DNA of 47,651 nucleotides from Vicinamibacteria bacterium (GTDB taxonomy: Bacteria > Acidobacteriota > Vicinamibacteria > Vicinamibacterales > UBA8438): the NCBI GenBank assembly GCA_963577695.1, contig CAUZAY010000003.1, forward strand, positions 1 to 47,651, given 5' to 3'. The notes below the pieces were generated by a model. The model did no database searches. It saw nothing but the letters and a program-made list of their open reading frames with translations, and had not been told where the DNA came from. This document shows positions 13,084 through 37,156 of the stretch, in pieces (the first letter of the stretch is position 1; each line of letters opens with the position of its first letter). Made by a program: the position numbers and the translations under genes.

Positions 13084-13095
13084 GAGATTCGATGA

Positions 13096-20798: not shown

Positions 20799-20956
20799 GG
20801 GCTCTGACCAAAACAAACTGGCCACCTGGGCCGCCGGGGCATCCCACCCGCCGACGTTGTTCGTCGCTTGCATACTCCCGGTATGCGCGCTCCTCGCGCC
20901 TTGTCGGGCGGGCGCCGCGACGCCCCAAGATGGCCAGTTTATTTTGGTCAGAGCCC
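20799..20956. mobile_element. 158-bp MITE with 26-bp TIRs and TTA target duplication
   Basis: GGGCTCTGACCAAAA(C/T)AAACTGGCCA at both ends (25/26 match), TTA on both sides (20796-20798, 20957-20959), inner hairpin GCATAC-TCCCG-GTATGC, no credible ORF. Confidence 0.88.
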
Positions 20957-21373: not shown

Positions 21374-21400
21374 CCGTCGTCGCTGCTGTGCCGGCCTCGG

Positions 21401-21979
21401 TCAGGCCGCCTCCGTCCAGTAGGGTTGTCCATGCGCCGTGCGCCGAACAATGCGGCCCGCCAGCATGTCCCGCCGTACCTGCGCCAGCCGCCTCGAGAGC
21501 GTCAGGTCGCGTTCAAACAGCAGGATCCCATCGAGTGAGACCTCCGCCCAGAGCCCCGCGACGACCGTGTCCGGGGCGGCAAACTGGACGAAGTGTGGCT
21601 CGACGGGGTGACCGTCCCAGGCGTCGGCCGCCTGGTCCCACCGACGATAGAGGGCTCGGGTGATCTCGATGACGGGGTCTACGACGATCAACAGGTCGAC
21701 GTCGGACCCGGCGGAGGCCTCCTGCCTGGCCCAGGAGCCGAAGACGGCGACGCCGACCAGGTGGTCGCCAAAGAGACTCGCGGCGTGCGTCACCGCGTAC
21801 GCGCCGCCGTCAATCACCGAGATGTCGCCCAGCGGGGCAGTAAGCTTCCGGGCGCAGTAGTCGTTCAACGACAGACCGGCCGCGGCGGCCGCGCCACGTA
21901 ACGCCTCGTGAAGACCCGGGGGCAGTCGTAGGAGAAACCGCCCCGAAGCCTGACGTGCTGGCGATGTGATATCAGACAT
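21401..21979 (-). CDS. HicB-like ribbon-helix-helix fused to minimal nucleotidyltransferase (MNT antitoxin)
   Basis: SGRFLLRLPPGLHEALRGAAAAAGLSLNDYC (RHH) followed by FGSWARQEASAGSDVDLLIV (GSx10DxD). Confidence 0.85.
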   Translation of the reverse strand: MSDITSPARQASGRFLLRLPPGLHEALRGAAAAAGLSLNDYCARKLTAPLGDISVIDGGAYAVTHAASLFGDHLVGVAVFGSWARQEASAGSDVDLLIVVDPVIEITRALYRRWDQAADAWDGHPVEPHFVQFAAPDTVVAGLWAEVSLDGILLFERDLTLSRRLAQVRRDMLAGRIVRRTAHGQPYWTEAA

Positions 21980-22050: not shown

Positions 22051-22818
22051 CTACGCCGCCGACGCTCCCGAGGGCCGCTGTCGGAACAGCCAGACGACAT
22101 CGAGGGCGAACGACGCGAGCAGCAGGGCCAGTGCGGCGCCGGCGGCGGCGATCGCCAGTGGGATCGGAATGATCGGGCCCAGGCAGACCAGCAGCACGAT
22201 GCCCTGCACGACACAGCCGGCCTTGCGTCGAAATCGTTGTGGCAGCGGCGCGCGCAGCCACGCGAGGCGCCAGCCCGCGACCACGAATAGATAGCGAGGC
22301 AGCCCGAGCAGCACCACCCACGGACCCACGCGACCGCTGCGCCAGACCAATGCGGCGAGGATGAGCATCAAGAACGAATCGAGCTCCATATCGAAGCGGG
22401 CGCCGAATGCGGTGGCGCTGTTGGTTCGTCGGGCGACCCAGCCGTCTACTCCGTCGAGACACAGGGCCAGCGTGGCCAGAGCGATGATGAACCAGTGGCC
22501 TCCGTCGAATTGGACTTCCGGGTGTGGGACCAGCGCCGCGAGGGGAAGCACCAGCATGGCCCGGCCGAGCGTGACCTGATTGGCGGGCCCCAGCCCGGTC
22601 CCCGGTGGTTGCGGCGGAAGATGACGAAGGAGCAGCGCCGAGGTCAACCCGAACAGCGCCACCGCCCGAAGCAGGTAGGTTGGCGGAAGATTGAACGCCC
22701 ACGCGATGCCACCGGCCACGACCAGCAGGAGCATCGCTCCGACGCCGAGATCGAGGAATGCGCCGTGGCGTCCCGAGGGGGCGGTCCTCGCTCGCCTGGG
22801 CGTCGGGTCGCGGAGCAT
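22051..22818 (-). CDS. CDP-alcohol phosphatidyltransferase family protein
   Basis: GPANQVTLGR and complete DGVDGWVARR...FGARFDMELD signature; multiple TM helices. Confidence 0.9.
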   Translation of the reverse strand: MLRDPTPRRARTAPSGRHGAFLDLGVGAMLLLVVAGGIAWAFNLPPTYLLRAVALFGLTSALLLRHLPPQPPGTGLGPANQVTLGRAMLVLPLAALVPHPEVQFDGGHWFIIALATLALCLDGVDGWVARRTNSATAFGARFDMELDSFLMLILAALVWRSGRVGPWVVLLGLPRYLFVVAGWRLAWLRAPLPQRFRRKAGCVVQGIVLLVCLGPIIPIPLAIAAAGAALALLLASFALDVVWLFRQRPSGASAA

Positions 22819-22987
22819 AGAGTGTCTGGTCTGACGTGATATCGGAGCCGAGATCTGTTTTGGCGTCTGGTTTGAAGTAACGTTCAGTGAGTTGGCGGCC
22901 GCTCCAGGCGCCTCCGCGCAGAGTCGGCCTGGACCGGAGGCCCGCGTCGTCGCCGAGGCAACCACGACCCACGTGATCTAGCCAGTT

Positions 22988-23971
22988 ATGTCCGAGCCCA
23001 TTATCGCTCACCAATTCTGGATTCAGTCGCCGGGCCACGGCGAGATCGTGCGGGCGACGCTGGGGCCAGCCCAGGAGGGCGACCTGTTGGTGCACGCGCG
23101 ATACTCCGGCATCAGCCGCGGTACCGAATCACTGGTCTTCCGGGGCGAGGTTCCGGCGTCCCAGTACGACGAGATGCGCGCGCCCTTCCAGGAGGGTGAG
23201 TTTCCTGGGCCGGTGAAGTACGGCTACTCCAGCGTCGGTGATGTGGTCGAGGGGCCGGTGGAGTGGCGTGGGCGCACGGTGTTCTGTCTGTTCCCCCATC
23301 AAGACCGCTACCGGGTGCCCGCCGTCGCCGTGACCCCGCTGCCGGCGGGTCTGCCTGCGGGTCGGGCGGTGCTGGCCGCGAACATGGAAACCGCCGTGAA
23401 CGTGGCCTGGGATGCCCGGCCGTCGGTGGGCGACCGGATTGTCGTGATCGGTGGCGGGGTCGTGGGGTTGCTCGTCGCCTGGCTGTTTCGGCAGATGGCC
23501 GGTGTCGACCTGACCGTCGTTGATGTGAATCCCGCACGTGCGGCGATCGCCGATGCGCTCGGCCTCCGATGCGTGACGACACCGCCCGTGGACGTCGATG
23601 CGGATCTGGTGGTCCACGCGAGCGGCCGGCCGGAGGGGGCGGTGACCGCGCTGAGCGTGGCCGGGGTCGAAGCCACGGTCGTGGAGGCAAGCTGGTACGG
23701 GACACGAGAGGTCGCGTTGCCGCTGGGGGAGCGGTTTCACGCGCGGCGTCTCACGTTGCGGAGCAGCCAGGTGGGTCGGTTATCTCCAACGCACGCTCCG
23801 CGCTGGACTCATGCCCGGCGATTGTCGCTGGCGCTCGACCTGTTGCGCGCGCCTGAACTCGATACCCTGATCTCGGGCGAGAGCCGCTTCGACGAGCTAC
23901 CGGCGGTCATGGCCTCCGTGGCTCGAGAACCGGGGGACACGCTGTGCCACCGGATACGGTATGAATCATGA
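22988..23971 (+). CDS. MDR-family NAD(P)-dependent oxidoreductase lacking canonical Zn ligands
   Basis: GroES-like domain with SGISRGTE and GYSSVG in place of CxxD/GHE; Rossmann GGGVVG; SSQVG. Confidence 0.85.
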   Translation: MSEPIIAHQFWIQSPGHGEIVRATLGPAQEGDLLVHARYSGISRGTESLVFRGEVPASQYDEMRAPFQEGEFPGPVKYGYSSVGDVVEGPVEWRGRTVFCLFPHQDRYRVPAVAVTPLPAGLPAGRAVLAANMETAVNVAWDARPSVGDRIVVIGGGVVGLLVAWLFRQMAGVDLTVVDVNPARAAIADALGLRCVTTPPVDVDADLVVHASGRPEGAVTALSVAGVEATVVEASWYGTREVALPLGERFHARRLTLRSSQVGRLSPTHAPRWTHARRLSLALDLLRAPELDTLISGESRFDELPAVMASVAREPGDTLCHRIRYES

Positions 23972-23986
23972 CCTTACGGAGGACGT

Positions 23987-24385
23987 GTGTACAGCCTTAA
24001 CGTTCGCGATCACTTCATGATCGCGCATAGCTTTCGGGGCGAAGCATTCGGTCCCGCCCAGCAGCTGCATGGGGCCACCTACGTCGTCGACGCGACGTTC
24101 CGTCGCCGGGAACTGGACAGCGACGGCCTGGTGGTCGACATCGGCCGGGCGAGCGAACATCTACGCACGATTCTGGCCGGCCTGTCGTACCGTAATCTGG
24201 ATGACGAACCGGCGTTCGCCGGGCAGAACACGACCACCGAGTTCCTCGCCCGGACCATCTTCGATCGTCTGGCGCAGGCGGCACGAGATGGTTCCCTGGG
24301 CGACGGTGCGCGCGGGGTGACGGCGATTTGCGTCACGCTGAACGAATCGCATGTGGCCTGGGGGAGCTACGAAGGCCAGGTGTGA
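23987..24385 (+). CDS. 6-pyruvoyl-tetrahydropterin synthase-like T-fold protein (COG0720, PTPS-IV-like)
   Basis: [33 protein letters not shown] and LNES motifs; no CxxxHGH; GGAGG RBS. Confidence 0.88.
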
Positions 24386-25461
24386 CACCGCCGGAGCTGC
24401 ACGTCGTTGTCCCGGGGCCAATAGATCAGCGCACCGGCGGCTACATCTATGACGCGCGCATCGTGGTGGGGCTCCGCGAGCTGGGGTGGTCTGTTGTGGT
24501 CCACTCCGTAGACGGTGCGTTTCCCGGCCCGGACCCGGTCGCGCGGTCCAGCCTGATGTCGACGCTCGCCGCCATTCCAACCGGCCGGCGCGTGGTGATC
24601 GACGGACTGGCGATGGGCGCGCTCCCGGAGCCGGTGCACGCCGAGGCGGGACGCCTCAGGGTGGTGTCGCTCGTTCACCACCCGTTGGCCGACGAGACCG
24701 GTCTTGATGCCGAAGCCCGACACAGGTTCAGCGCGCTCGAGCGAGACGCGTTGTCCGCCTGCGTGGGCGTGCTGGTGACGAGTGCGTTCACGGCCCGGCG
24801 CCTCGAGCAGTACGGCGTGGAGGCCGAGCGTGTGCGGACGGTGTATCCCGGCACGGATCGATGCCGGCCGGCGGTGGGGCCTGGGCGCAACGTGCCTCCC
24901 GCATTGTTGTGCGTCGGGTCCGTGACGCCTCGCAAGGGACACGACGTGCTGGCGCGCGCCCTGGCCCGCTTGCGACACCTGCCCTGGACCTGCGTCTGTG
25001 CCGGCAGTCTCGCGCCGGCGCCGGGCTACGCGGAGGTGGTGCACCGTCTGATCCGCGACGCGCGGCTCGACGAACGGGTGCAGTTGATAGGGGAGTGTGA
25101 CGCGGGCCGCCTCGACGCGCTTTACCATCACGCGTCCCTGTTCGTGCTGCCGTCGCATTACGAGGGCTACGGGATGGCCCTGAGCGATGCCTTGGCTCGG
25201 GGGCTGGGGGTGGTCAGCACCACGGGCGGTGCCATCCCGCACACCGTACCGAGTGATGCCGGCGCGCTGGTGCCCCCGGGCGACGATGTCGCGCTGACGG
25301 CAGCGCTTCGCGACCTCTTGGCGGAGCCAGGGGGGGGCGAGCGGCGTGCGGCCCTGGCTGCCGCGGCCTGCCGCCACGCCGAGACGCTCCCGCGATGGGA
25401 CCAGGCCGCCCTGCGTTTCGCGGCCGCCGTGCAGGAGCTGACACCTGATGGAAACGTTTGA
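24382..25461 (+). CDS. Glycosyltransferase family 4
   Basis: [33 protein letters not shown] (Ex7D variant); GTG overlaps the upstream TGA. Confidence 0.88.
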
Positions 25462-26308
25462 CGCCGATTGGCTGGCGTTGCGCGAGCCGGTCGACCACGG
25501 GTCGCGAGCCGAAGCCTTGATCGCGCCGCTCGTCGACGCATGGCAGACCCGCGGGTGGTCGCGGGTGCTGGACCTGGGCAGCGGGACCGGTTCCAATCTG
25601 CGATACCTGGCGCCACGGTTGCCAGGCGGCCAGGCCTGGGTGCTGGTTGACCACGATCTGGAGCATCTCCGCACGCTCCGGGGGCTCGCCAGGCCGGATC
25701 GGGTGAGGAGCTTGACCGTGTCGCCTGGAGACCTCGCCGCCCAGGATCTCGAGGAAGTGGCCGGTGTCGATCTGGTCACCGCCTCCGCTCTGCTCGATCT
25801 CACATCCGAACGATGGCTCGACCGCGTGGTGACGGCCTGCTCCCAGGCCAGGTGCGGAGTGTTGTGGGCGCTGACCTACAACGGGCGCATTCACTGGTCA
25901 GACCAAGAGGCCGACGACTCGGCGGCGGGCACGGTAGCCGTGGCGCCACGTGATACGGATCCCGACGATCGACTCGTCCAAGACGCGGTCAACCTGCATC
26001 AGACCGGCGACAAGGGGTTCGGGCCGGCTCTGGGACCTGCCGCCGGACGGGTGGCGGAGCGTCGCTTTCAGGCGGCCGGCTATCACACAACCCTTCGCGA
26101 TAGCCCGTGGCGCCTCGCCGCTCCCGATCGCTCAATTGTCAAACGGCTGGTCGACGGGTGGGAACAGGCCGCCGCGGCGGTTCGCCCGGCCGATTCCGCC
26201 CGGATTCGCCGCTGGGCCGATGGACGACGCGCGCGGGTCGCCACTGGTCGATTCTCGCTCACCGTGGGGCACCACGACCTCCTCGCCCTGCCCCCCGCCC
26301 CGCGATGA
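25448..26308 (+). CDS. Class I SAM-dependent methyltransferase
   Basis: WLALREPVD N-terminus, VLDLGSGTGSN motif I, DLVTASALLDL. Confidence 0.85.
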   Translation: METFDADWLALREPVDHGSRAEALIAPLVDAWQTRGWSRVLDLGSGTGSNLRYLAPRLPGGQAWVLVDHDLEHLRTLRGLARPDRVRSLTVSPGDLAAQDLEEVAGVDLVTASALLDLTSERWLDRVVTACSQARCGVLWALTYNGRIHWSDQEADDSAAGTVAVAPRDTDPDDRLVQDAVNLHQTGDKGFGPALGPAAGRVAERRFQAAGYHTTLRDSPWRLAAPDRSIVKRLVDGWEQAAAAVRPADSARIRRWADGRRARVATGRFSLTVGHHDLLALPPAPR

Positions 26309-27231
26309 GAATACCGGGCTCCTGGCGGGTGCTGCTGACCCTCGTTCTGCTGCTGGGTGTGGCCTGGTGGCTCGACCTGAACAGCGTCGCGGCGCGTTTG
26401 GTGGCACTGCGCCCCGGGTGGGTGGGGCTGGCGCTCGGCCTGTCCGCCGTTCAGGTGGCGGTGCTGGCGTGGCGCTGGCGTTTCACGGCGCGTCGGCTGG
26501 GCGTGCCTCTGCCCTTTGGCGAGGCGTGGTGCGAGTATTACCTGTCGATCTTCCTGAACCAGGTGTTGCCAGGTGGAGTCATGGGCGACGTGTCGCGAGC
26601 GTGGAGACAGGCGCGCGCGCGTCCCCTTCCCGATTCGGCCGCGGCGGGCGGCCCGGCGGCGCGGGCGGTCATCTTCGAGAGGGTGTCGGCGCAGGCGGTC
26701 ATGACCACCGTGGCCCTGGTGTCGCTACTGGCCGTGCCCTCGGCCGTCGGCCGGCGTACCGGCCCGATGGTGTTCGCAACCGTGGCGGCGTCCGCGGTGA
26801 TCGTCGTGGGTGTCGTGATCTGGGCCCGGCGGCAATCATCGGCCAAATCTCCAACCGGCCGCGTACTGGCCGAGCTTGCCACCGCGCATCTCTCCCCCTC
26901 GGTGTTCGCGGTACAGCTGTCGAGCGGCCTGTTCATCGTCGCCACTTATCTGGCCACGTACGTCGCCGCCGCGCGCGCCGTCGGGGTCGAGACCCCCTTC
27001 TTCGTCATCCTCCCCCTCGTGGCGCCAGTCCTGATGACGATGCTGATCCCGGTGACCGTCGCCGGGTGGGGACTACGCGAGAGCGCGGCTGCCCTGTTGT
27101 GGGGCGCGGTGGGCCTGACCGCTGCCGACGGGGTCACCATCTCGGTCGCCTACGGCCTCATCGTGCTGGTCGGCAGTCTGCCTGGCGCCGCGGTGCTGGC
27201 CATGGGCCGTCGAGGGACCGGCGGGACCTGA
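26305..27231 (+). CDS. Lysylphosphatidylglycerol synthase TM (flippase-like) membrane protein
   Basis: AWRW, FLNQVLPGGVMGDVSRA, IFER and PVTVAGWGLRE motifs; ~8 TM helices; ATGA coupling. Confidence 0.85.
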   Translation: MRIPGSWRVLLTLVLLLGVAWWLDLNSVAARLVALRPGWVGLALGLSAVQVAVLAWRWRFTARRLGVPLPFGEAWCEYYLSIFLNQVLPGGVMGDVSRAWRQARARPLPDSAAAGGPAARAVIFERVSAQAVMTTVALVSLLAVPSAVGRRTGPMVFATVAASAVIVVGVVIWARRQSSAKSPTGRVLAELATAHLSPSVFAVQLSSGLFIVATYLATYVAAARAVGVETPFFVILPLVAPVLMTMLIPVTVAGWGLRESAAALLWGAVGLTAADGVTISVAYGLIVLVGSLPGAAVLAMGRRGTGGT

Positions 27232-27264
27232 TAATTTCTCATCCACGACGGTCCGTGAGGCCCT

Positions 27265-27313
27265 GTGGCGCAGGCCTTCAGGCCTGCTCAGAACGTCTAA
27301 AGACTTGCTCCAC
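27265..27313. repeat. REP pair (second copy degenerate)
   Basis: GTGGCGCAGGCC-TTCA-GGCCTGC followed by inverted GTCTAAAGACTTGCTCCAC, between convergent genes. Confidence 0.6.
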
Positions 27314-27355
27314 AACGAGATCCGACGGTCGTGAGGCTCCGGCTGAGATGGTAAC

Positions 27356-28181
27356 TTAGTCTTGATCTTGGACAGTGTCACACCGGCCGCGCATGTCCCA
27401 CAGGCCGACTCCGGCCAGGACCACCAGATCAACAAACAGCAAGGGCGCGAAGACCGGCGCGCCGTGCAAAATTCTCGAACAGGCTGGACGAGAGGCCGTT
27501 GACGTCGGCGACGAGATGGAAGTAGAAGCCAGCAATCCCGACGACCACCTGTAACGCGAGAATCGCCATCGAGATTCGGATGATCGCGGTCTGTCGATCC
27601 ATCAGCACCACGGCCAGGAAGCCGACGGCGGCGGCGCTGGTGCCCACCGGGAGCCATTCCGTGGCGTGGAAGAACCCGTTCATCGCGTGGTCGCAGAGGG
27701 TGAGCATGAAATTGCCGGCGAAGCCGCCCAGCGCGAAGAAGACGATCCATTGGCCCCATTCCGCATCAGCGCTCGGGACCAGGCGATTCAGCAAGAGCAG
27801 GAACCCGAGGCCCGCGTACGCGAGGGGTGCGACGAATGGCGCCGTGTAGACCAGGCTTTGAATCGTCCACTGGGAGAAGAACTGGCTGTCCAGGTGATAG
27901 AGCACGCCGGCGAGACCGAGCGCGATCGAGGAGACCCCGACACCCAGGCCCATGATGTGAATGAGCGTGTGTCCCTGGCGGCGGTGCCGGAACCAGACGG
28001 CCGGCGCCAACACCAGGACGGCGCCGAGCGAAAAGCCGAGCGGCACCCACTCGGCCCCGTGCCGAAAGCGATTGAGGGAATGCGCGAGATAGACGTCCAG
28101 CACCAGGAAGGCGTAGTTCGAGAGGACGAAGGTGTCCAGCACCGCCGCCTTGTGCCGGTCCCACCAGAGCGGGTCAGTCAC
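27356..28181 (-). pseudogene. His-containing polytopic membrane protein (partner of octaheme cytochrome), frameshifted near 27470
   Basis: Two internal repeats (H..N.F.H..EW.P ... G..YHL ... AP..APL). The second repeat's HGAPVFAPLLF lies in a shifted frame after ENF and ends at TAA 27356. Confidence 0.7.
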
Positions 28182-29390
28182 CAGCGGATCTGAGTCCCGA
28201 GGCCATTTCTTCGAGCTCCGTCATCTTCAGGAGCAGCTCGTAGTTGCCGTGCCATTGCACGAAATCGGCGCCGCCCATGAACGCGCCATGTTTGGCCGTG
28301 CGGCCGAAATAGTGCCAGAAGTCGAAATACAGAAACTCGATGGCTTCATCGAACGGTGCCGGAGTCAGGAGCCCGTCGGACCGCAGGCCTGCCATCGGAT
28401 CCCGCGCAGCTCGCACACGCTCATTGGTGGCCGCCACGACCGCCTCGGCTTCCACGTAGAAGCCGTTCACGTTCGTGGACGCGTGTCACCTCAGGCAGGT
28501 CTCCTTCATCTCCGTCTGACCCGCGAGGTAACCGGGATGCTGTTCGGAGACCTCCGCGAACAACCAGTACGACAGCCGCTCGGTGGTGTCGTGTGTGACC
28601 TTGAGCCCGTCCAGCCCGCTCATGTGACACGTCGCGCACGTCGGAATCGGCATGTCGGCCGTCGTTAGACGTTTTGGGTCGACGCCCAGATCCAGGACAT
28701 TGCGCTGCGCGTTGAACAGCGCCCCATGTTTCCATTCGTTGTAGATCTCGATCTGCGAGTGGTCGGGGCCCATGTGGCACTGTCCGCACGTTTGGGGTTC
28801 TCGCGCCAGTGCGATCGACGTCGAATGCCTGGAGTGACACTCGGTACAGCTGCCGATAGAGCCGTCCTGATTCGGAGCGCCGGTCGCATGACACCCCAGA
28901 CAACCGGTCTGCATGGCTGCTGGGCCCTCGAGGTGGCCGGGCGATCGACGGCGCCCGGATGATGCTGCTCGCTCAGGGCGAGTTGGTCGGCGGATACCTC
29001 GGCGGCGCCGCGCACCGCTCCCCAGGCAGGCAGCGCGTGCCGGCTGCGTGCGAACTGTTCGTATTCCGTGCGGTGACACGCCTGGCAGTTCAGCGAGGTG
29101 ACATCGCCAGCGAGCACAAAGTTGTCGTGTTCGTTCGGTTCTTGCCCGTCGAGTGTCTGATGACAGTCGTAGCACGTGATGTCGGCCTGGCTGTGCGCGC
29201 TGCGCTCGAACTGGTGGACGACCGCGGCGGTCTCCTCACGGTGGCATTGCGCGCATCGCCCAGAGGCCTGCGTGAACGTGGGCGTGGCTCCGCCCGTGTT
29301 GGCCGGCGGTCGGGCGTGGTTGATCATGAGGGCCGCCACCATCAGGCTGCCTCCGATGACACAGGCAATGAAGATCGACTTGAAAGGTAT
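28174..29390 (-). pseudogene. Octaheme c-type cytochrome (HAO/multiheme family), disrupted
   Basis: CAQCH, CYDCH, CQACH, then a frameshift near 28933, then CLGCH, CTECH, CGQCH (MGPDH), CATCH and CLR-TGA-H. HAO-like C-terminus HGAFMGGADFVQWHG; start appears as ATA. Confidence 0.85.
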
Positions 29391-29397
29391 GGGTCGT

Positions 29398-30261
29398 TTA
29401 GCGAAGGTCGAAATCGAACAGAACGTCCTCGCCGAGGTGGAACGTTCGGCACGGTGGACGGAGCGCCCGGTCCAGCGAGCCAATCGGCGGGAGCGTGAGA
29501 GCCGGGCGTCCGGAACCGATCAGCATTGGCGCCACCGCGACGTGAAGCCGGGTCAGCGCCCCGGCCTGGAGGAAGCGCGAGACGGTGACGCCACCGCCTT
29601 CAATCAGGAGCCGCCGGAGACCGCGCGCGCGGAGCGCGTCGACTACCGCGAGCGGGTCGAATCCCGGCGGAGGCCCGTGGGGGGCGTCGGCGGACGCCGT
29701 TGGCAGGCTGATGACATCGTCGCTGGTGGTGGCGGGCGTGTCCGGCGATGCCCGGCGGACCACAAGCGTGCGGGCCGCCCCGTCGCTGAAGACGGCGTAT
29801 TCGGGTGACAGACGCGCGTTCGGGTCGAGCACCACTCGCACCGGGTTGGCTCCATCGACCCCCCGCACGGTCAGGCGCGGGTCGTCCGAGGCGATGGTGC
29901 CGGCACCGACGACCACCGCGTCCACCAGTGCCCTCAACCGATGCACACGGAGGATGTCGGCCTTGCCGGTGATGTAATGGGAATGTCCCTGTTCGGTGGC
30001 GATCCGACCGTCCAGGCTTTGCCCAATCTGGCCGATCACGAGGTCGGCATCCAGTTGCAGCGGCAGATACAGGTCGACGAGCGCCCTGGCCGCCTCGCAG
30101 AGCGGGCGCGAAGCGCTCCATCCTCCCGCATCGTCGATCTGCAGCCAGACCGGGTCATTTGCACTAGAATGGACGCGCGAAGAAGGCTGGGCGCTGGGAC
30201 CGGCTGCGGGCACGGCTCGAATCAAGCTCCAAGCGCTGGATTCGGTCACCAGAGTCGGCAC
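29398..30261 (-). CDS. ribD: RibD C-terminal pyrimidine reductase domain protein (no deaminase domain)
   Basis: QSLDGRIAT, HRLRA..DAVVVGAGT...DDPRLTVR, NPVRVVLD, LLIEGGG and APMLIGSG motifs. Start uncertain. Confidence 0.85.
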   Translation of the reverse strand: MPTLVTESSAWSLIRAVPAAGPSAQPSSRVHSSANDPVWLQIDDAGGWSASRPLCEAARALVDLYLPLQLDADLVIGQIGQSLDGRIATEQGHSHYITGKADILRVHRLRALVDAVVVGAGTIASDDPRLTVRGVDGANPVRVVLDPNARLSPEYAVFSDGAARTLVVRRASPDTPATTSDDVISLPTASADAPHGPPPGFDPLAVVDALRARGLRRLLIEGGGVTVSRFLQAGALTRLHVAVAPMLIGSGRPALTLPPIGSLDRALRPPCRTFHLGEDVLFDFDLR

Positions 30262-30326
30262 GTAGCGGTCTCCATTCAGCAATAACTGTATCGTGACCAC
30301 GAACGGAGTTCAGGTTGGACGGTAGC

Positions 30327-31481
30327 ATGCGAGACGCAGAGCGGGGTTTGTTCGACCTCCGGCGCGGTCGCCCCATTCGGGTGACCGGTGGCCAGACGTC
30401 TGACGAGGCCGTGCTGCTGGCCGCCGTCGAGGGCCTCACGCACGGAACGCTGGAGCAGTTGCGTGGGCATGGACGCGGCCCGGTGTGTCTTGCGGTCACC
30501 CATCATCGAGCCTATGCCATGGGGCTGACCCCGGCCCCTCCGATAGGCCAGACACCCGACCGCACCACTGGGGTTCACACGGGCGACGTCAGTCTGGGGC
30601 TGCGCGGTGAGACGACTCCGGACGGCCTGTGGAGTCTGTCGAGTGGCTTGGATCAACCAGACAAGGACGGCTTGGAGATGGGCGCCGCCTCCATCCCGGA
30701 GGTGGGTGGCCTGACCTTGGCGCGGCTCGGGCAGCTGTTGCCGGCGGTGGCGAGCGTTGCGCTCGGCCAGGACGACACGCGTGATGACGCGGGTGGCGAC
30801 GATGCCATTGCAACCGTGACCATTGAACAGATCCAGGAACTGGCCGCGAACAACCGGGTGGAAGTCACCTACGTCAGCGACGGGCCAGTGCCGCTCGAAG
30901 AAGCGGAAGAGGCCCGGTTCGTCTGTTTTCGCGAAGCCAACGGCATTCTCGAGCATGTCGCCATTCTGATCGGAGTACGAGAGGACTGGCCGGAGCCGGT
31001 GCCGGTGCGTCTGCACTCGGCCTGTCTCACTGGCGACCTGTTCGGGAGCCTCCGATGCGACTGCGGCCAACAGTTGCGTGGCAGCCTTCGGGTATTTGCG
31101 GCCCGAGGCGGCGGCGTGTTGCTGTATCTGGCGCAGGAGGGGCGCGGTATCGGCCTGGGAAACAAGCTGCGGGCCTATACCCTCCAGCAGCAAGGACTGG
31201 ACACGGTCGACGCCGATTGCGCACTCGGGTTCGGGGCGGACGAACGCCGCTACGACGCCGCGGTGGAGATGCTTGGGCATCTCCAGATCAATCGGATTCA
31301 GTTGCTCACCAACAACCCGGAGAAGGTTCGAGCCCTGCAAGCTGGCGGCATCGATGTGGCGGAGCGCCAACCGCTCTACGGCACGCTGAATCGGCACAAC
31401 CTGCCCTACGTCAAGGCCAAGGTCGACCGCGCCGGCCACTGGCTCACCGAGATGCTCTCGGGGCCGATCCGAGGGAACTAG
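30327..31481 (+). CDS. ribA: GTP cyclohydrolase II with degenerate N-terminal domain
   Basis: VRLHSACLTGDLFGSLRCDCG (three Zn Cys), QEGRGIGLGNKLRAY, DERRY, LLTNNPEK, Y..AK....GH. Confidence 0.92.
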   Translation: MRDAERGLFDLRRGRPIRVTGGQTSDEAVLLAAVEGLTHGTLEQLRGHGRGPVCLAVTHHRAYAMGLTPAPPIGQTPDRTTGVHTGDVSLGLRGETTPDGLWSLSSGLDQPDKDGLEMGAASIPEVGGLTLARLGQLLPAVASVALGQDDTRDDAGGDDAIATVTIEQIQELAANNRVEVTYVSDGPVPLEEAEEARFVCFREANGILEHVAILIGVREDWPEPVPVRLHSACLTGDLFGSLRCDCGQQLRGSLRVFAARGGGVLLYLAQEGRGIGLGNKLRAYTLQQQGLDTVDADCALGFGADERRYDAAVEMLGHLQINRIQLLTNNPEKVRALQAGGIDVAERQPLYGTLNRHNLPYVKAKVDRAGHWLTEMLSGPIRGN

Positions 31482-31521
31482 TCGGGGCCTCGCCGCGAAT
31501 GACTATTGACTGGCCGCCCGG

Positions 31522-32325
31522 TCAGTCGCGAAAGCGGTCGAGCGGGAACGCGCGCGCGTCCTCGATGACCTCGGCCAGCACCTGCCCATAGTGGCCCACC
31601 AGCTGCGCCCCCAACTCGGCCGTCGCCAGTGTGGCGTCGCCGGTCACCCCTTCCACATTCAGGTCGCCGGCCAGCCACGCGAACGAGGCCTCGCCTTCCG
31701 GACCAAGTCGACGCGTTGATTCCTCCAGGTCGTGTCCCAGCGACCGGAACGCCTTGATGGCCTCCCTCGTGACCAGGTCCGGCCGAAGATGGAGCATCAT
31801 CGCCGTTTCGACCGCCCCGCCGTGCAGCCCGTGACGCCACTCGGTGTCCGGTAGCGCGCTGTGGGGCGGGCGGGAGAACGCGAAATAGCTGGCCTTGACG
31901 ACCAGCAGTCCGTGGTCTTCCCGGAGCGCGAGCGCGGCCAGATCGAGCGCCCCCGTGTTGCCGCCATGGCTGTTGAACAGTACGAGACGCCGGATTCCGG
32001 TCGCCGCGATGGCGGCGCCGTGCTGGCGTATCGTTTCCGTCACCAGTTCCGGATCGAGGCTGAGCGTGCCGGGAAACCGCGCGTGTTCGCGGCTCGCGCC
32101 ACTGGTGTGCGGCGGCAGCACCGACACGGGTACGTCGGGTGACAGACGCCGACAGGCGTCCGCGAGGAGTCCCAGCCCAATGTCGAGGTCGGTCGAGAGT
32201 GGAAGGTGCGGGCCGTGCTGCTCGATGGCCGCGAGCGGCAGGACGACCACCGGGTCACGGCCGGCCAGCTCGGCGGCCTCGATGGTGGTCTGCGTGTGCC
32301 AGTAGGGAAGTGACGGCTCGGGCAT
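31522..32325 (-). CDS. Creatininase-family amidohydrolase (FAPy deformylase-like)
   Basis: EQHGPHLPLSTD, SREH..FPGT, NSHGGN and HGGAVET motifs. Confidence 0.9.
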   Translation of the reverse strand: MPEPSLPYWHTQTTIEAAELAGRDPVVVLPLAAIEQHGPHLPLSTDLDIGLGLLADACRRLSPDVPVSVLPPHTSGASREHARFPGTLSLDPELVTETIRQHGAAIAATGIRRLVLFNSHGGNTGALDLAALALREDHGLLVVKASYFAFSRPPHSALPDTEWRHGLHGGAVETAMMLHLRPDLVTREAIKAFRSLGHDLEESTRRLGPEGEASFAWLAGDLNVEGVTGDATLATAELGAQLVGHYGQVLAEVIEDARAFPLDRFRD

Positions 32326-32388
32326 GGTGGTGTCTCTGGGGGCGGTCTGGCCGGCCGCGCGAACGGCGAGACCCTGCGCACGGTGTCG

Positions 32389-33252
32389 TCACGCGGGAGC
32401 GACCAGACGCCGCCGACGGAAGACGGCGAGATCGTATCCGATCCAGCCTCGGGCCAAGCACGTCCGCAGCGCGTTGCCGCCGACCAGATGACCGAGCCGG
32501 GTGCCGTCGAGGGGGAGCCAGCCGAAGAGCGCGACGAAGCACGCGATCAGATGGTCGCGTGGACGGCCGAGCTGAAGATGGGGCGTGAGGTCGTCCGACG
32601 ACAGGTGATCGAAACCGGCGTCGGCCGCGAGGCGCCGCAGCTCGTCCTCGCGAATCACGGTGTTGAGGTGCCACCCGCGTTGGAAGCGGGCGATGGCCCG
32701 TGTCGCGGTCGGGGTGTCGACCCTGCGGCGGAAGTCGTCGCAGACGACAAGCAGGCCTCCTGGCCTCACGAGCCCGGCGCACGACTCGAAGAAGCGAGCC
32801 GGGTCAGGCCCATGCACGAACGACTCGATCGCGTAGGCCAGGTCGGCCGGCGCGACATCGTCCGGGGGCGCGCAGAAGTCGCCTTCGCGGCAGACGACGC
32901 GTCCGTCGAGTCCGGCCTCGCGAATGCGCTGGTCGGCGTACCGCACCTGTACCGGGCTCAACGTCAGCCCGGTGCCCTGGATGGGCAGCCGCCCAGCCAG
33001 GTAGCAGAGGCTGGCCCCGACGCCGCACCCGAGGTCGACCACGTGCAACGGAGTGGGACCGCTCGGCAGGGTTCGTACGTGGTCGAGGATTCGGTCTTCG
33101 ACGTAGCGAAACGCCGCCGCTGGGCTCTCGATGCCCGGGCTCCAGACTGGTCGGTGCAATGCGCCGACCACACCGCCCTGCCCATGGGCGACAAAGCCGT
33201 CCGTGTTCCGGTCGTAGTACCGTCGCACATCGGCGGCGTCGAACTCTGGCAT
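32389..33252 (-). CDS. Class I SAM-dependent methyltransferase (sterol/tocopherol-MT-like)
   Basis: VRRYYD, VVDLGCGVG, GLTLSPVQ, AIESFVH, LVRPGGLLVVCD. Confidence 0.85.
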   Translation of the reverse strand: MPEFDAADVRRYYDRNTDGFVAHGQGGVVGALHRPVWSPGIESPAAAFRYVEDRILDHVRTLPSGPTPLHVVDLGCGVGASLCYLAGRLPIQGTGLTLSPVQVRYADQRIREAGLDGRVVCREGDFCAPPDDVAPADLAYAIESFVHGPDPARFFESCAGLVRPGGLLVVCDDFRRRVDTPTATRAIARFQRGWHLNTVIREDELRRLAADAGFDHLSSDDLTPHLQLGRPRDHLIACFVALFGWLPLDGTRLGHLVGGNALRTCLARGWIGYDLAVFRRRRLVAPA

Positions 33253-33275
33253 GGTGGGCTGCACACGGGCCGCTA

Positions 33276-34055
33276 CTAGGCGGCGTCGCGGTTCGGGGTC
33301 TCCTGCGATACCGGCTCCAGACGCGCATAGACGTCACCGGAGCACCGGCGGGCGAGCGGCGTCTCCAATGCGGTCAGCAACGCGTCGCCGGACAGCCAGT
33401 TCTTGGACATCAACCGGTACGATTCCCCGGGGGACCAGTTGAAGCGGTAGGGCCCCAGTGCGTTCAGACGGGTGAGGCAGGCGTCCGTGTAGTCGAGCGC
33501 GTCTGGGAGATATTCGAACGACAGCGAGCGAATCGAGTGCGTGAGGCCGGCGAGCACCCCCGGTTCGCCGCCTTCGACGTCGATCTTGATGAAGACCGGG
33601 ACGCCGAAGCGCGCAATCAGGTCGTCCAGGGTCGTGGTGTCGACGTCGACCTGTCTGTTCCACTGGACGCCGGCAAAGACCGGGTCGCACACCCGGTCGT
33701 CACGCCATTCGGCGGTCAGCGTCGCCATCGTGGGCGTCCGGTCACTGACCGACAACGCGGCGCGTCCGCCGTGTTCGCCGACCGCGGCCTCGACAATCTC
33801 AATGTCTGGCTGTCGGGCGAACAACGTGCGCAGCAGCTGTGCGATGTGGGGCTGCGGCTCGAGGGCGACCACACGGCAGCCGAGCGCGCCCATGGCTCTC
33901 GTCCGATTCCCGACATGGGCGCCCAGGTCGAACGCCAGATCGCCACGCTCGACGAATGCCGAGTACAGGTGCCGGAGCCGACGTTGTCTGAATGGAATCG
34001 CGTGGTAGACCGCCAGTGACCGGAGAAGGCCGACCGCTCGACCAAGCTGGCTCAT
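33276..34055 (-). CDS. FkbM-family methyltransferase
   Basis: AFDLGAHVG, VVALEPQP, TTLDDL, FIKIDVEGGE, SFEY. Confidence 0.9.
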   Translation of the reverse strand: MSQLGRAVGLLRSLAVYHAIPFRQRRLRHLYSAFVERGDLAFDLGAHVGNRTRAMGALGCRVVALEPQPHIAQLLRTLFARQPDIEIVEAAVGEHGGRAALSVSDRTPTMATLTAEWRDDRVCDPVFAGVQWNRQVDVDTTTLDDLIARFGVPVFIKIDVEGGEPGVLAGLTHSIRSLSFEYLPDALDYTDACLTRLNALGPYRFNWSPGESYRLMSKNWLSGDALLTALETPLARRCSGDVYARLEPVSQETPNRDAA

Positions 34056-34134
34056 GTCCGCTGATCGTATCCTGAACGGTCCTCTACGGATGTCGATCCG
34101 GCCGTTGCGGATCGTCGGAGCGGACCGGACCCGC

Positions 34135-34140
34135 TACAAT
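34135..34140 (+). promoter_or_regulatory. Putative -10 box (TACAAT) for a leaderless transcript
   Basis: TACAAT ends 6 nt before ATG 34147, with no Shine-Dalgarno. Confidence 0.4.
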
Positions 34141-34146
34141 GCCGTC

Positions 34147-34578
34147 ATGCAACGCTCGGCTGCGGGCAGCCTGCGGGTCCTGTCGTGCGTGATGGGCGGC
34201 TTCCTCGTGCTCATGGCGCTCGGCAAGACCGGCTGGATGTCCGACAGCGGGCCGCTGATCGACGAGCTGTGGGGGTGGCGTGAGTCCGTGCCGGCACTCA
34301 GTGGCTGGTATCTGGATGCCGTGGCGATTCCGGGGGCACCGTTGTTCGCGCGGGTGGTGCCGATTGGCGAACTCATGACCGGCACCGCGCTGCTGGTCGG
34401 GTTCCGGGTGAGACTGGCCGCCACCGTGGCGGTGCTCATGGTGCTGAATTTTCATTTTGCGATGGGCATCTTGTTTCAGATGTCCTACCTCACGAATGGC
34501 TACGGACCGCCGGTGGTGGGGAGCCTGGTGGCCCTGGCGCTCGGCCCCGCGCGGTTGCCGTACAGCCTCCATCGCTAG
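34147..34578 (+). CDS. DoxX-family membrane protein
   Basis: Four hydrophobic segments; GELMTGTALLVGFRVRLAA DoxX-like motif; terminal YSL. Confidence 0.7.
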   Translation: MQRSAAGSLRVLSCVMGGFLVLMALGKTGWMSDSGPLIDELWGWRESVPALSGWYLDAVAIPGAPLFARVVPIGELMTGTALLVGFRVRLAATVAVLMVLNFHFAMGILFQMSYLTNGYGPPVVGSLVALALGPARLPYSLHR

Positions 34579-34595
34579 CCCGATGGTAGGGTGGT

Positions 34596-36263
34596 GTGGT
34601 GACCAGTAGTGGGCAGGAGCGCGTGACGGGGGCCGCCCCACGCCGTCCGGTTCCGGGGGGCCATCTTGCGACGCTCGTCAAGCTCGTCGCGGCGCTCCTG
34701 CTGCTCAATGTCTCGCTGACGTTCTCCAACATTTGGCCGACCCTCGGTATCAGCCTGAACGCCGACCTCTCGCTCGAGACGGCCGTGTGCGTGCTCGCGT
34801 TGCTCGTCGCGCGCCGGCGGTGGGACGGGCCGTCCGCGGCTGGCCTGCGGTGGCTGGCGGGGCTGTGGCTTGTCCTGGTCGTCGGGCGTTACACCGACGT
34901 GACCGTGACGTCACTCTACGGGCGGAACATCAATCTGTACTGGGATCTCCAGCACGTGCCGAGTGTGGGCGCCATGTTCGCCGTCGTGGCGGATCCCTGG
35001 CTGAAGCTGGGATTCGTCGTGGGGGTGCTGGTCGGGCTGGCGTCGCTGTATCTGGGTGCGCGGTGGGCGATCGCCGCCGTGGCTGCGGGCACCCGCGTGC
35101 GTGGCGCGCCGCGTGTGCTTGGCGCCCTGGCGGCCGCGGTGCTCCTGCTGAGCCTGGCCCAGACGTTGGGCGCGCGCCTGCCGCTCGGGGTGCGCGTGGC
35201 GAGCCCGGTGGCGACCGCCTACGCACGCGAGTTGGGCGAGTATGCCTATGATCTGAGCGGCGCCGGCGTGCGCGACCTGGGTCCGCCGCCGGTGCTCCAA
35301 TCCGACCTGACCCGCCTGGGTGGCGCCGACGTGTTCGTGATCTTTCTCGAGTCGTATGGGGCCGTCGCCTGGCGCCGCCCCGAGTTGGCGGGTCCACTGG
35401 TCCCGGCCATGGCGCGGCTGACAGAGGACATTGCCGAGACCGGTCGATTCGTGGCCTCCGCGTTCGTCGAATCCACCACCTTCGGCGGCGAGTCGTGGCT
35501 CGCCCATGTCAGCCTGTTGTCCGGCACGGAGATCCGCGACCCGGCCACCAACGTGCGGCTGATGGCGCAAGAGCGAGACACGATGGTCAAGCTCTTTGGA
35601 CGAGGCGGGTATCGCACGGTTGCGATCATGCCCGGCATGCTGGTGCCCTGGCCGGAAGGGGCGTTTTACGGATTCGAGGAGATCTACGACCACGATCGAC
35701 TCGGCTATCGAGGCCCGCAGTTCGGTTGGTGGGACATCAACGACCAATACGCCCTGGCGCGGGTCGATGCGCTGGAAATCGAGCCGTCCCGTGACCAGCC
35801 GGCGTTCGTGTTCTTCACCACCATCTCCACCCACGCGCCGTTCGTGCCGGCCCCCCCGTACCAACCAGACTGGGCGCGGGTGCTGACGACGAATCCGTAC
35901 GACGCCGACGCGCTCGATAGGGCGTGGTCCGCCTGGCCGGACTGGACGAATCTGGCGCCAAGCTATCTGGAAGCGCTCGAGTACGCCTTCCACAATGTCG
36001 GCGGCTATCTCCGTCTCCGCGCCGATCGCAACCTCGTGATGGTGTTGGTCGGCGACCACCAGCCACCGGCACTGGTCAGCGGTGAAGGGGCATCGTGGGA
36101 CGTGCCCGTGCATGTGATTGCCAATCGGCCGGAGGTAATGGACCGACTGACACGGCACCATCAGTTCACGGACACGCTGCAGCCGGGTGACCAGGCCGTG
36201 GCTCAAATGGACACGCTGTTGCCCATCCTGCTGGACGCGTTCGGCGACGGGGGGGGACCGTGA
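34596..36263 (+). CDS. Membrane-anchored alkaline-phosphatase/sulfatase-superfamily protein (LtaS/MdoB-like)
   Basis: About five N-terminal TM helices, then FLESYG, GGESWLAH (Ser nucleophile), STHAPF and VGDHQP metal motifs. Confidence 0.8.
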   Translation: MVTSSGQERVTGAAPRRPVPGGHLATLVKLVAALLLLNVSLTFSNIWPTLGISLNADLSLETAVCVLALLVARRRWDGPSAAGLRWLAGLWLVLVVGRYTDVTVTSLYGRNINLYWDLQHVPSVGAMFAVVADPWLKLGFVVGVLVGLASLYLGARWAIAAVAAGTRVRGAPRVLGALAAAVLLLSLAQTLGARLPLGVRVASPVATAYARELGEYAYDLSGAGVRDLGPPPVLQSDLTRLGGADVFVIFLESYGAVAWRRPELAGPLVPAMARLTEDIAETGRFVASAFVESTTFGGESWLAHVSLLSGTEIRDPATNVRLMAQERDTMVKLFGRGGYRTVAIMPGMLVPWPEGAFYGFEEIYDHDRLGYRGPQFGWWDINDQYALARVDALEIEPSRDQPAFVFFTTISTHAPFVPAPPYQPDWARVLTTNPYDADALDRAWSAWPDWTNLAPSYLEALEYAFHNVGGYLRLRADRNLVMVLVGDHQPPALVSGEGASWDVPVHVIANRPEVMDRLTRHHQFTDTLQPGDQAVAQMDTLLPILLDAFGDGGGP

Positions 36264-37156
36264 TGATGATGGGGAGGCGGGGGAGATGGCTCATGACGGC
36301 GTCAGTCGTGACCGCGGCCGCCGCTCTGGTGGGGCCGTCGACGGCGTCCGCGCAGGTGTCGCTCGACGTCATGACCTTCAACATTCGGACGGCGGCCGGG
36401 CGCGACGGCGACAACGCCTGGCCGAACCGCAAAGCGCTGCTCGTCGAGACCATTGAACGCTATGCGCCCCAGGTCGTCGGCATGCAGGAGGCGCTGGGCG
36501 AGCAGATCGACTATCTGGATCAGCAATTGCCGGACTACCGGTGGATTGGCATCGACCGTGGGCTCAACGGGGGAGTGGGGTTGAGCGAAGCGACGCCGAT
36601 CTTCTACCGGTACGCTGAGCTGAGTCCGATCGAGTCTGGGAACTTCTGGCTGACCGACACCCCGGACACACCGCCGGTCCGGCGGACCGAGGGCCGACGC
36701 CGTCGGGGCGGCGGACGCATCGTCACGTGGGCCCGGTTCTATCACCGCGCCACCGGCCGCCAGGTGCATGTCTTCAATACCCACTTCACGCTTCGGCGCG
36801 GCCAATCACAGCTCGATTCGGCCGACCTGATCGCCGGCCGTGTCGCCGCCCTTCCGGCGGGCGCCGCCGCGATCGTGATGGGCGATTTCAACAACAATGC
36901 TGAAGAGAGTGACACCTGGCGCGTCGCCACCGCCCGTGGGTTGCGCGATGCGTGGGTGGCGGCGGCCGAGCGCGTCGGACCGATCGCAACCTATGGCGAC
37001 TTCGGACCGCCGGACGAGGCGCTCGCTGAGCGCGTCGACTGGATTCTGGTGGGCGGTCCAATCGACGTTCGGCGCGCCGAGACCGTGGTCCACAACGATG
37101 GTGGCCGGTATCCCTCAGACCACTATCCGGTCGCCGTGCAGTTGGTCATCCGCTGA
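36260..37156 (+). CDS. Secreted endonuclease/exonuclease/phosphatase family protein
   Basis: MTFNIR, GMQE, NTHF, GDFN, DWI and PSDHYPV motifs; signal peptide. Confidence 0.9.
   Translation: MMMMGRRGRWLMTASVVTAAAALVGPSTASAQVSLDVMTFNIRTAAGRDGDNAWPNRKALLVETIERYAPQVVGMQEALGEQIDYLDQQLPDYRWIGIDRGLNGGVGLSEATPIFYRYAELSPIESGNFWLTDTPDTPPVRRTEGRRRRGGGRIVTWARFYHRATGRQVHVFNTHFTLRRGQSQLDSADLIAGRVAALPAGAAAIVMGDFNNNAEESDTWRVATARGLRDAWVAAAERVGPIATYGDFGPPDEALAERVDWILVGGPIDVRRAETVVHNDGGRYPSDHYPVAVQLVIR

Follow-up and report, generated by a model that had tools for sequence, protein, structure and literature searches.

The window analysed here is a stretch of 47,651 nucleotides (nt) from a Vicinamibacteria bacterium (contig CAUZAY010000003.1, positions 1 to 47,651), which is contig C3 of a 4.39-Mb metagenome-assembled genome (MAG) of 460 contigs, 86% complete and with ~66% G+C. 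Between positions 22051 and 37156 it holds a group of genes around a T-fold protein of the PTPS-IV type. The best explanation of this region is that it exemplifies a conserved "PTPS-IV cluster", which is horizontally mobile and codes for a dedicated pathway distinct from riboflavin synthesis. We give a probability of about 0.5 to the reading that the product of this cluster is a GTP-derived compound linked to a membrane lipid, a reading in which we infer every chemical step. A similar pathway had been proposed for positions 22051 to 36263 from the letters of the window alone. Of this sequence-only reading, the gene content, the linkage, the PTPS-IV assignment and the LtaS-like fold were borne out, whereas a deformylation by the creatininase-family enzyme is not required here. 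All the genes that it named were recovered at or near the positions it gave them when the candidate open reading frames (ORFs) of the window were scanned against Pfam and NCBIfam. As judged by PTPS-IV and its neighbour genes, the closest relatives are MAGs of Acidobacteriota (Vicinamibacterales-type) and of Gemmatimonadota.

The core operon lies on the forward strand. It opens with an NAD(P) oxidoreductase of the medium-chain dehydrogenase/reductase (MDR) superfamily, apparently without catalytic Zn ligands (22988-23971; weak Rossmann and bchC-like matches). This is followed by the PTPS-IV T-fold protein of SCO6650 type (23987-24385; PF01242, E 5e-24), a family 4 glycosyltransferase (GT4; 24382-25461 from a proposed GTG start, the longest ORF running from 24328; PF00534, E 4e-26), a class I S-adenosylmethionine (SAM) methyltransferase of a cluster-specific family, here called MT25 (25448-26308; PF13649, E 3e-7), and a flippase-like LPG_synthase_TM membrane protein (26305-27231; PF03706, E 6e-36). 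Inspection of the junctions revealed that the likely GTG start of GT4 at 24382 sits in GTGTGA with the PTPS stop, that the ATG of MT25 runs 14 nt into the end of GT4 and that the likely ATG start of the flippase-like gene at 26305 sits in ATGA with the methyltransferase stop. The five genes from MDR to flippase therefore form one translationally coupled unit. A CDP-alcohol phosphotransferase, a membrane protein, is encoded divergently from it (22051-22965, reverse strand; PF01066, E 9e-16).

The GTP-processing genes comprise a pyrimidine reductase paralogue consisting of RibD_C only, with the deaminase domain absent (29398-30300, reverse; PF01872, E 2e-38), a GTP cyclohydrolase II (GCH II) paralogue with a degenerate DHBP-synthase-like N-domain (30315-31481, forward; PF00925, E 2e-52) and a creatininase-family amidohydrolase (31522-32325, reverse; PF02633, E 5e-60). 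They are followed on the reverse strand by a second class I SAM methyltransferase, Methyltransf_11/CMAS-like according to Pfam and NCBIfam and here called MT11 (32389-33264), and by an FkbM-family methyltransferase (33276-34055; PF05050, E 6e-14; TIGR01444). On the forward strand, a membrane-anchored LtaS/EptA-like phospho-alcohol transferase of the alkaline-phosphatase/sulfatase superfamily was found at 34596-36263 (PF00884, E 1e-10; ~5 N-terminal transmembrane (TM) helices). The next gene, for a secreted protein of the endonuclease/exonuclease/phosphatase (EEP) family with a signal-peptide-like N-terminus (36260-37156, forward; PF03372, E 1e-17), overlaps the LtaS-like gene by 4 nt. The cluster therefore goes past 36263, which had been taken as its right limit, and reaches 37156.

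Relatives were sought in contigs representing one genome per species, and at least 530 of the 600 pattern-matched stretches that were checked encoded a relative. The best 80 of these loci belong to Acidobacteriota (28), Gemmatimonadota (22), Actinomycetota (19) and Pseudomonadota (10), plus one further locus, and in them PTPS-IV is 67-90% identical over 132 amino acids (aa). Co-occurrence was counted by tblastn, and with profile hidden Markov models (HMMs) made from the matches, in the 60 related loci that span 20 kb or more and have full 10-kb flanks; absence of a gene from a locus means absence inside these flanks. MDR, GT4 and MT25 were each found beside PTPS-IV in 60/60 loci. The remaining genes followed with RibD_C in 56/60, CDP-alcohol transferase in 53/60, GCH II in 50/60 and creatininase in 42/60. 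The flippase-like gene was detected in 36/60 loci by tblastn and 37/60 by HMM, and the LtaS-like gene in 35/60 and 39/60, respectively. FkbM was present in 34/60, MT11 in 20/60 (tblastn) or 23/60 (HMM), a DoxX-like gene in 14/60 and EEP in 5/60. At least one GTP gene occurred in 57/60 loci and all three in 36/60 (tblastn). In the window's own 4.39-Mb genome the cluster HMMs match only 1-3 places each, except for GT4 (18) and MT11 (12), and the clustering is far above chance. Co-conservation of the lipid-type genes with the GTP genes had been named as a test of the earlier proposal, and the former do accompany the latter in four phyla as well as on plasmids.

The gene order is nearly constant from Vicinamibacterales to Streptomyces: CDP-alcohol transferase on the reverse strand; MDR, PTPS-IV, GT4, methyltransferase and flippase-like gene on the forward strand; RibD_C reverse, GCH II forward and creatininase reverse. 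Where the order is reshuffled, as in loci L019 and L088 and on Rhizobium and Thiodictyon plasmids, the genes stay together, and in Thiodictyon the CDP-alcohol transferase lies in a same-strand run with RibD and the core. To the left of the CDP-alcohol transferase, no further conserved family and no cytidylyltransferase were found across the loci by de novo ORF clustering, which is noisy owing to shadow ORFs in high-GC DNA and was used solely for that region. The cluster was found on 21 plasmid records, including pOB3b1 of Methylosinus trichosporium OB3b and plasmids of Streptomyces, Rhizobium and Thiodictyon. Together with the patchy phyletic pattern (PTPS-IV in 16 genomes of a 301-genome sample of the phylum), the plasmid carriage fits horizontal spread.

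The COG0720 "PTPS-IV" assignment of the 23987-24385 protein was confirmed by the FGPAQ motif, which is kept in eight aligned PTPS-IV homologues, and by a phmmer match to the Protein Data Bank (PDB) entry 3d7j, the uncharacterized protein SCO6650 (E 3.8e-54, residues 2-130). FGPAQ is given as the PTPS-IV signature in PMC5445326, citing Phillips 2012, where PF00925 and PF01872 are also placed in the neighbourhood of the subgroup. Both are neighbours of PTPS-IV in the window, as they are in 50/60 and 56/60 related loci, respectively. With SCO6650 the cluster thus shares the motif and the GCH II and RibD_C neighbours, and the Streptomyces loci carry the same operon with creatininase and ribA; nothing structural differs and the window protein is a member of the subgroup. 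At the QueD motif CxxxHGH, the window protein reads A-Q-Q-L-H-G-A against C-K-H-L-H-G-H in the QueD-type paralogue that the same genome encodes on contig C48, and in the alignment both the Cys and the last His are Ala in PTPS-IV. In the plasmid records, the NCBI annotation pipeline (PGAP) names PTPS-IV homologues "6-carboxytetrahydropterin synthase" and attaches a queuosine Gene Ontology term. This naming is probably a systematic misannotation, because the CxxxHGH motif is missing. SCO6650 itself is said to contain no zinc and to lack PTPS activity.

The statement of the sequence-only reading that no product has been identified for this subgroup held in the full-text literature searched, although an earlier description may exist in subscription papers or supplements. 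Within the same full-text search, no CDP-alcohol transferase, GT4, flippase-like or LtaS-like partners of PTPS-IV were found described. The cluster type is known as an orphan; its link to phospholipid head-group machinery is robust and, to the extent that the literature is searchable, undescribed. In the accessible text of a review of bacterial pterins from 2026, lipids are not mentioned, and pterin efflux systems are stated to have yet to be identified (PMC13259868).

When the window GCH II was aligned to the E. coli enzyme (2bz0), the residues at Cys54, Cys65, Cys67 and Tyr105 were found to be conserved. We take the three Cys to be the Zn triad and Tyr105 to be the active-site Tyr that marks the canonical enzyme. 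In SCO6655 this Tyr is reportedly replaced by Met, and the enzyme is said to halt at the formylated (FAPy) product. The window enzyme, having the Tyr, is not of this FAPy-forming type. The Tyr is kept in 56/58 cluster-linked GCH II homologues, the exceptions being from Streptomyces (L081, Leu) and Pseudonocardia (L067, His). Both of these loci have a creatininase match; Micromonospora loci keep the Tyr and have none. This pattern fits a deformylase role of creatininase in actinobacteria. The best NCBIfam match of the window creatininase is MftE, below cut-off. The family includes the AFRPP formamidase BrbF, as described in PMC9478397. For RibD_C, the PF01872 score was 132.6 bits (cut-off 24.1), with TIGR00227 at 128 against 150 and TIGR01508 at 113 against 186.

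These enzymes are not the genome's only riboflavin genes, a point on which the earlier proposal had been made to depend. Whole-genome family searches located RibD, RibE and a RibBA-length GCH II on contig C63 and RibH on contig C342, none of these being in the window. Given this separate canonical set, the cluster GCH II and RibD_C are paralogues. A FolE match was not found in the own, 86%-complete MAG; FolE is present in 5/5 cluster-bearing relatives, and a search of five genomes, one of them the own genome, found FolE2 in 0/5. We rejected a role of the cluster as a FolE substitute, since the relatives that carry it also have FolE. The archaeal and fungal early riboflavin route, together with bacterial BrbF, uses the same enzyme families and presumably the same chemistry, i.e. 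ring opening, deformylation (PMC9478397) and reduction before deamination. The cluster genes differ from it in being paralogous to the genome's own rib operon, with a canonical Tyr and without deaminase, lumazine synthase or riboflavin synthase, and in being embedded among glycosyl-, methyl- and phosphotransferases.

The lipid-type enzymes have recognizable signatures. In the CDP-alcohol transferase the motif D(x2)DG(x2)AR(x8)G(x3)D(x3)D is intact, LDGVDGWVARRTNSATAFGARFDMELD, and TM-like segments are present. The PgsA, PssA and PIP synthase equivalogs of NCBIfam scored 21-28 bits against cut-offs of 107-180, so that no named equivalog fits. The PDB relatives of GT4 are PimB', MshA and BshA. 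A CDP-alcohol phosphotransferase beside a PimB'/MshA-related GT4 is also what phosphatidylinositol/phosphatidylinositol mannoside and mycothiol-type assembly have in common with the cluster, and the logic from polyol phosphate to phosphodiester to glycosylation is the same. The cluster, however, has no inositol-phosphate synthase, its transferase belongs to no equivalog and its alcohol is presumed to be GTP-derived.

The PF03706 match of the flippase-like protein spans the full length of the model. With the MprF flippase domain and the LtaS, MdoB (OpgB) and EptA enzymes, the cluster shares the PF03706 domain and an enzyme with 5 TM helices and an alkaline-phosphatase fold; unlike MprF, its protein has no aminoacyl-phosphatidylglycerol synthase domain, nor any other synthase domain attached. 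In the LtaS-like enzyme E252, S300, H413, D487 and H488 are invariant among 24 homologues, at numbers close to those of what we take to be the metal and nucleophile set of LtaS. A structure modelled from these homologues (predicted local distance difference test, pLDDT, 87) gave LtaP/LtaS, EptA, MCR-1, GacH and PbgA as the best Foldseek matches (4uop, 5fgn, 9nww and 2w8d among the top), with modest TM-scores of 0.37-0.50 and sequence identities to the solved enzymes of 11-17%. The predicted structure shows the 34596-36263 protein to have an LtaS/EptA-like fold, in line with the LtaS/MdoB-like transferase that had been read from the sequence.

In the MDR, GISRGTES and GYSSVG stand where GxCxxD and GHE-type motifs are expected, and the GGGVVG NAD(P) site is kept. 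Zn-dependent MDR or alcohol dehydrogenases presumably have their Cys, His and Glu/Cys ligands at these positions, and the earlier description of the enzyme as Zn-less fits these motifs. PGAP names the MDR homologues Zn-dependent medium-chain alcohol dehydrogenases, a name with which the residues at these assumed ligand positions do not agree. Of the MDR, just the Rossmann half could be aligned to solved members of the superfamily. MT25 was modelled (pLDDT 94) with a class I fold of generic type, and the model matched only generic class I methyltransferases (TM 0.4-0.56), from which no clue to the substrate was obtained.

A census of the 120 listed proteins that carry a PTPS-IV domain and exceed 232 aa yielded 32 PTPS-GT4, 30 MDR-PTPS and 3 MDR-PTPS-GT4 fusions; one MDR-PTPS-GT4 protein of 1155 aa also carries an LPG_synthase_TM domain. 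A different architecture was observed in proteins of ~1200 aa (P0003, P0022 and P0049, with 2-8 member sequences each), which consist of three tandem PTPS-IV domains, an MT25-like middle and a C-terminal MDR. The middle part was aligned to MT25 with hhalign (92%, E 6e-7). Since this domain order differs from that of the operon, these proteins are not read-through artefacts, and PTPS-IV, methyltransferase and MDR therefore act together. P0044 (855 aa) likewise has three tandem PTPS-IV domains and gave no MDR match; the composition of all four three-domain proteins is Ala-rich. An ESM Atlas search with a 1259-aa fusion protein returned generic MDR leads only, with scores of at most 0.76. Open frames of 494 aa around PTPS-IV in two genomes were judged not to be fusions. 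In a single case, on a 1.6-kb contig, PTPS-IV is fused to an NTP_transferase/IspD domain (P0009), which hints at a CDP-activated intermediate.

Taken as a pathway, the cluster would start with the opening of GTP by GCH II to 2,5-diamino-6-ribosylamino-4(3H)-pyrimidinone 5'-phosphate. The creatininase-family enzyme would remove the formyl group where the cyclohydrolase halts at the formyl stage, or would hydrolyse another amide, and the RibD_C enzyme would convert the ribosyl group, by reduction, into a ribityl side chain. The 2-amino-4-oxo-pyrimidine may then be tailored by the core methyltransferase together with the MDR and PTPS-IV, both taken to be Zn-less, possibly by C2' oxidation and ring closure to a neopterin-like pterin. 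Reduction of the ribosyl group followed by MDR oxidation at C2' would amount to an Amadori rearrangement and would thereby allow ring closure. Pterin formation by the cluster is put forward as a hypothesis, with the precedent that dihydroneopterin phosphate can be formed from the GCH II product (PMC4161248). In that Chlamydia bypass RibA acts with TrpF (PMC4161248), whereas the cluster has no TrpF-like isomerase. Pterin-glycoside pathways, in the order in which we take their steps to run, employ a parallel set of T-fold protein, reductase, glycosyltransferase and methyltransferase. The cluster departs from them in its PTPS-IV, from which the catalytic Cys of PTPS and one Zn ligand are missing, and in its reductase, which is an MDR; sepiapterin reductase is a short-chain dehydrogenase.

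In the later steps GT4 would place a sugar on a side-chain hydroxyl, as MshA does on inositol phosphate and PimB' on phosphatidylinositol, and the CDP-alcohol phosphotransferase would form a phosphodiester to a membrane lipid. Because no cytidylyltransferase is conserved in the cluster, CDP-diacylglycerol is the simplest donor. The LPG_synthase_TM protein would flip the lipid outward and the LtaS-like enzyme, where present, would pass the phospho-head group to an outside acceptor, while the extra methyltransferases, the EEP enzyme and DoxX or cytochrome b561 may modify, trim or service the product. Such a product could represent a new lipid class with a glycosylated, methylated pterin-like or ribityl-diaminopyrimidine head group that is flipped, serving either as a tethered redox group serviced by DoxX/cytochrome b561 or as the donor for LtaS-like transfer to periplasmic glucans or surface polymers. 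This more specific proposal is tentative, and we would sooner expect it to need revision than to hold.

Several observations weigh against a lipid-linked product or against parts of the proposed route. As the Tyr of GCH II is kept, a FAPy-deformylase role of creatininase is not required here and, with the Tyr in 56/58 homologues, the enzyme is left without an explained role in most lineages, the window included. In PTPS-IV the catalytic/Zn motif is short of its Cys and of one His, and the protein might bind the heterocycle without transforming it. Some of the fused bacterial forms, mostly single metagenomic gene calls, may be frameshift artefacts because the genes overlap. The flippase-like and LtaS-like genes are each missing from about one third of the loci. 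In 7/60 loci, all from Micromonospora (L069, L071, L073, L076, L078, L085 and L086; at ~8900-9000), the CDP-alcohol transferase is cut to an N-terminal remnant of ~20 aa; other Micromonospora loci retain it. For the plasmids of Methylosinus OB3b and Rhodobacteraceae SC52, the PLSDB gene table, which is incomplete, lists neither a CDP-alcohol transferase nor a flippase, the core genes that it does list being MDR, PTPS, methyltransferase and RibD, with or without GT4. The SC52 plasmid (L094, 6834-12132) carries a minimal set of ribokinase, MDR, PTPS-IV, methyltransferase, RibD and an MtnA-type sugar-phosphate isomerase, with no GT4 or membrane genes listed. From this version and from the three-PTPS fusions without GT4 and membrane genes it follows that the soluble core can stand alone. 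Finally, a 2016 review, citing unpublished work, puts PTPS-IV in F420 synthesis (PMC5041015).

Two further observations concern the place of the CDP-alcohol transferase. In L085, the upstream region is instead occupied by pectinase genes that carry CBM2 domains. On pOB3b1 of Methylosinus OB3b (L091, 8079-9881) its divergent position is taken by a gene annotated as mdoH, a periplasmic glucan glucosyltransferase, which may hint at periplasmic glucans as the acceptor.

The alternative that survives best is that the product, a pterin or ribityl-aminopyrimidine that has been glycosylated and methylated, is soluble or excreted and acts as cofactor, signal, antioxidant or natural product, with the membrane genes serving export or being loosely linked and with no lipid-bound form. 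It would account directly for the wholly soluble nature of the invariant and fused core (MDR, PTPS-IV, GT4 and MT25), for the minimal versions without CDP-alcohol transferase and flippase and for the 3xPTPS-MT25-MDR proteins, which have no membrane domain. Pterin glycosides and dedicated pteridine glycosyltransferases do exist, with cyanobacteria and Chlorobium as the analogy (PMC5683033; PMC13259868), and in the accessible text of the review no export route for pterins is known (PMC13259868). This reading has to contend with a CDP-alcohol transferase that adjoins the core in 53/60 loci against ~3 matches per 4.4 Mb of background and that in Thiodictyon is part of the same-strand run, and with the 1155-aa protein in which the LPG_synthase_TM domain is joined to MDR, PTPS and GT4. 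Moreover, CDP-alcohol transferases with non-lipid products are normally accompanied by a cytidylyltransferase, and none is conserved in the cluster. We regard a soluble product as a serious alternative, albeit an unlikely one.

A private cofactor or prosthetic group is considered distinctly improbable. Here the GTP-derived compound would serve the cluster's own oxidoreductase or T-fold proteins, which would help to build an ordinary glycophospholipid. Such a role would suit an MDR without a metal site and a PTPS-IV without part of the catalytic/Zn motif, both strongly conserved nevertheless, and it would give a place to the recurrent redox membrane proteins (cytochrome b561-like in 14/80 loci and on two plasmids, DoxX in 14/60). 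However, the GGGxxG NAD(P) site of the MDR is normal, the fusion of PTPS-IV to GT4 suggests hand-over of a substrate rather than use of a cofactor, and no GTP-derived cofactor private to one pathway is known to us as a precedent.

More improbable still is a reading that makes the GTP genes a reserve or specialised source of precursors for riboflavin, Fo or F420 and places PTPS-IV in deazaflavin synthesis. GCH II, a creatininase-type formamidase and RibD_C do correspond to the first three archaeal-type riboflavin steps, the review mentioned above names F420, and the own genome encodes an FbiC-type (CofG+CofH) Fo synthase on contig C2 (34006-36279). On the other hand, a full housekeeping set of RibBA, RibD, RibE and RibH exists elsewhere in the genome, the enzymes that would complete riboflavin synthesis are missing from the cluster, and GT4, CDP-alcohol transferase, flippase and LtaS-like enzyme would have no role. 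No support for a link to Fo/F420 synthesis was obtained: CofD was found in 0/5 cluster-bearing genomes and, in the 301-genome sample, where PTPS-IV occurs in 16 genomes and CofH/FbiC above cut-off in 27, the two were found together in only 4, all from the window's own family. About 1 kb downstream of the Fo synthase, at 37123-37656 of contig C2, a weak CDP-alcohol-transferase-like match was observed (E 8e-6); a CofD was not found in this genome.

That a GTP-processing and a glycolipid module are unrelated and adjacent by chance or hitch-hiking is very improbable, for although they form separate transcription units, partly divergent or convergent, with accessory genes that differ between lineages, they are paired in 57/60 loci across four phyla and plasmids despite rearrangements, and the T-fold gene sits in the "glycolipid" operon and is fused to its genes.

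The remaining genes of the region were also inspected. A small DoxX/MauE-like membrane protein is encoded at 34054-34578 on the forward strand; the gene that had been called DoxX is thus present, but the family assignment is weak (PF07681, 22.6 bits against a cut-off of 23.6). A cytochrome b561-like gene was found in 14/80 related loci (L025, L034, L036, L038, L040, L042, L045, L047, L049, L054, L056, L059, L060 and L064). It directly adjoins the LtaS-like gene in several of them (e.g. L025 and L040) and adjoins RibD on two plasmids (L092, 13026-13565; L095, 11528-12085). Small redox membrane proteins, namely cytochrome b561 and, in Vicinamibacterales, DoxX, are recurrent companions of the cluster.

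Between the flippase-like gene and RibD_C lie a polytopic (7-TM-like), His-rich membrane protein with hydrophobic segments and no Pfam or NCBIfam match (27429-28181, reverse) and a heptahaem cytochrome c gene split across two frames (28486-29483, reverse; PF13447, PF14522). Three CxxCH motifs of the N-terminal half are in one frame and four of the C-terminal half in another, which indicates a frameshift or an assembly error. Both genes were found in 0/80 related loci, and 27429-29483 is a local insertion outside the conserved cluster.

Contigs from 4 metatranscriptome libraries (4 studies) matched parts of the MDR, PTPS, GT4, flippase, RibD_C, GCH II, creatininase, LtaS-like and EEP genes at 0-1 differences. 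These matches are a weak hint of transcription, with DNA carry-over possible. As the RNA libraries contained 9-19% of the sampled words, parts of the cluster without coverage are not to be read as silent. An Rfam scan of the window detected no riboswitch and no other RNA family. Outside the cluster, an IS200/Y1-type transposase gene (17259-17732, forward) lies ~4 kb to the left and is followed by four ORFs (18052-21535) without Pfam match. Further left, on the reverse strand, 7175-13158 encodes a pyrroloquinoline quinone-dependent dehydrogenase and subunits of a Na+-translocating decarboxylase (OAD beta, biotin carrier and carboxyltransferase). To the right, 40373-47649 (reverse) holds a second envelope-type group with a PIG-L family de-N-acetylase, a family-less ORF, an ATP-binding cassette (ABC) exporter and a large GT2 glycosyltransferase.

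Hundreds of bacterial species from soil, freshwater, soda lakes and the sea, belonging to at least four phyla, carry the cluster, which also occurs on megaplasmids, and a crystal structure of its central protein has been available since 2008 with no function assigned. Its carriers include cultivable and genetically tractable bacteria, such as Streptomyces, Micromonospora, Methylosinus trichosporium OB3b and Rhizobium. If the product is lipid-linked or surface-bound, the cluster would represent a new head-group chemistry for bacterial envelopes. In that case it would likewise be relevant to the passage of pterins into the periplasm, a question that is open according to the accessible text of the 2026 review (PMC13259868), and, should the new lipid class prove true, it would be the first defined route for a pterin-type molecule out of the cytoplasm.

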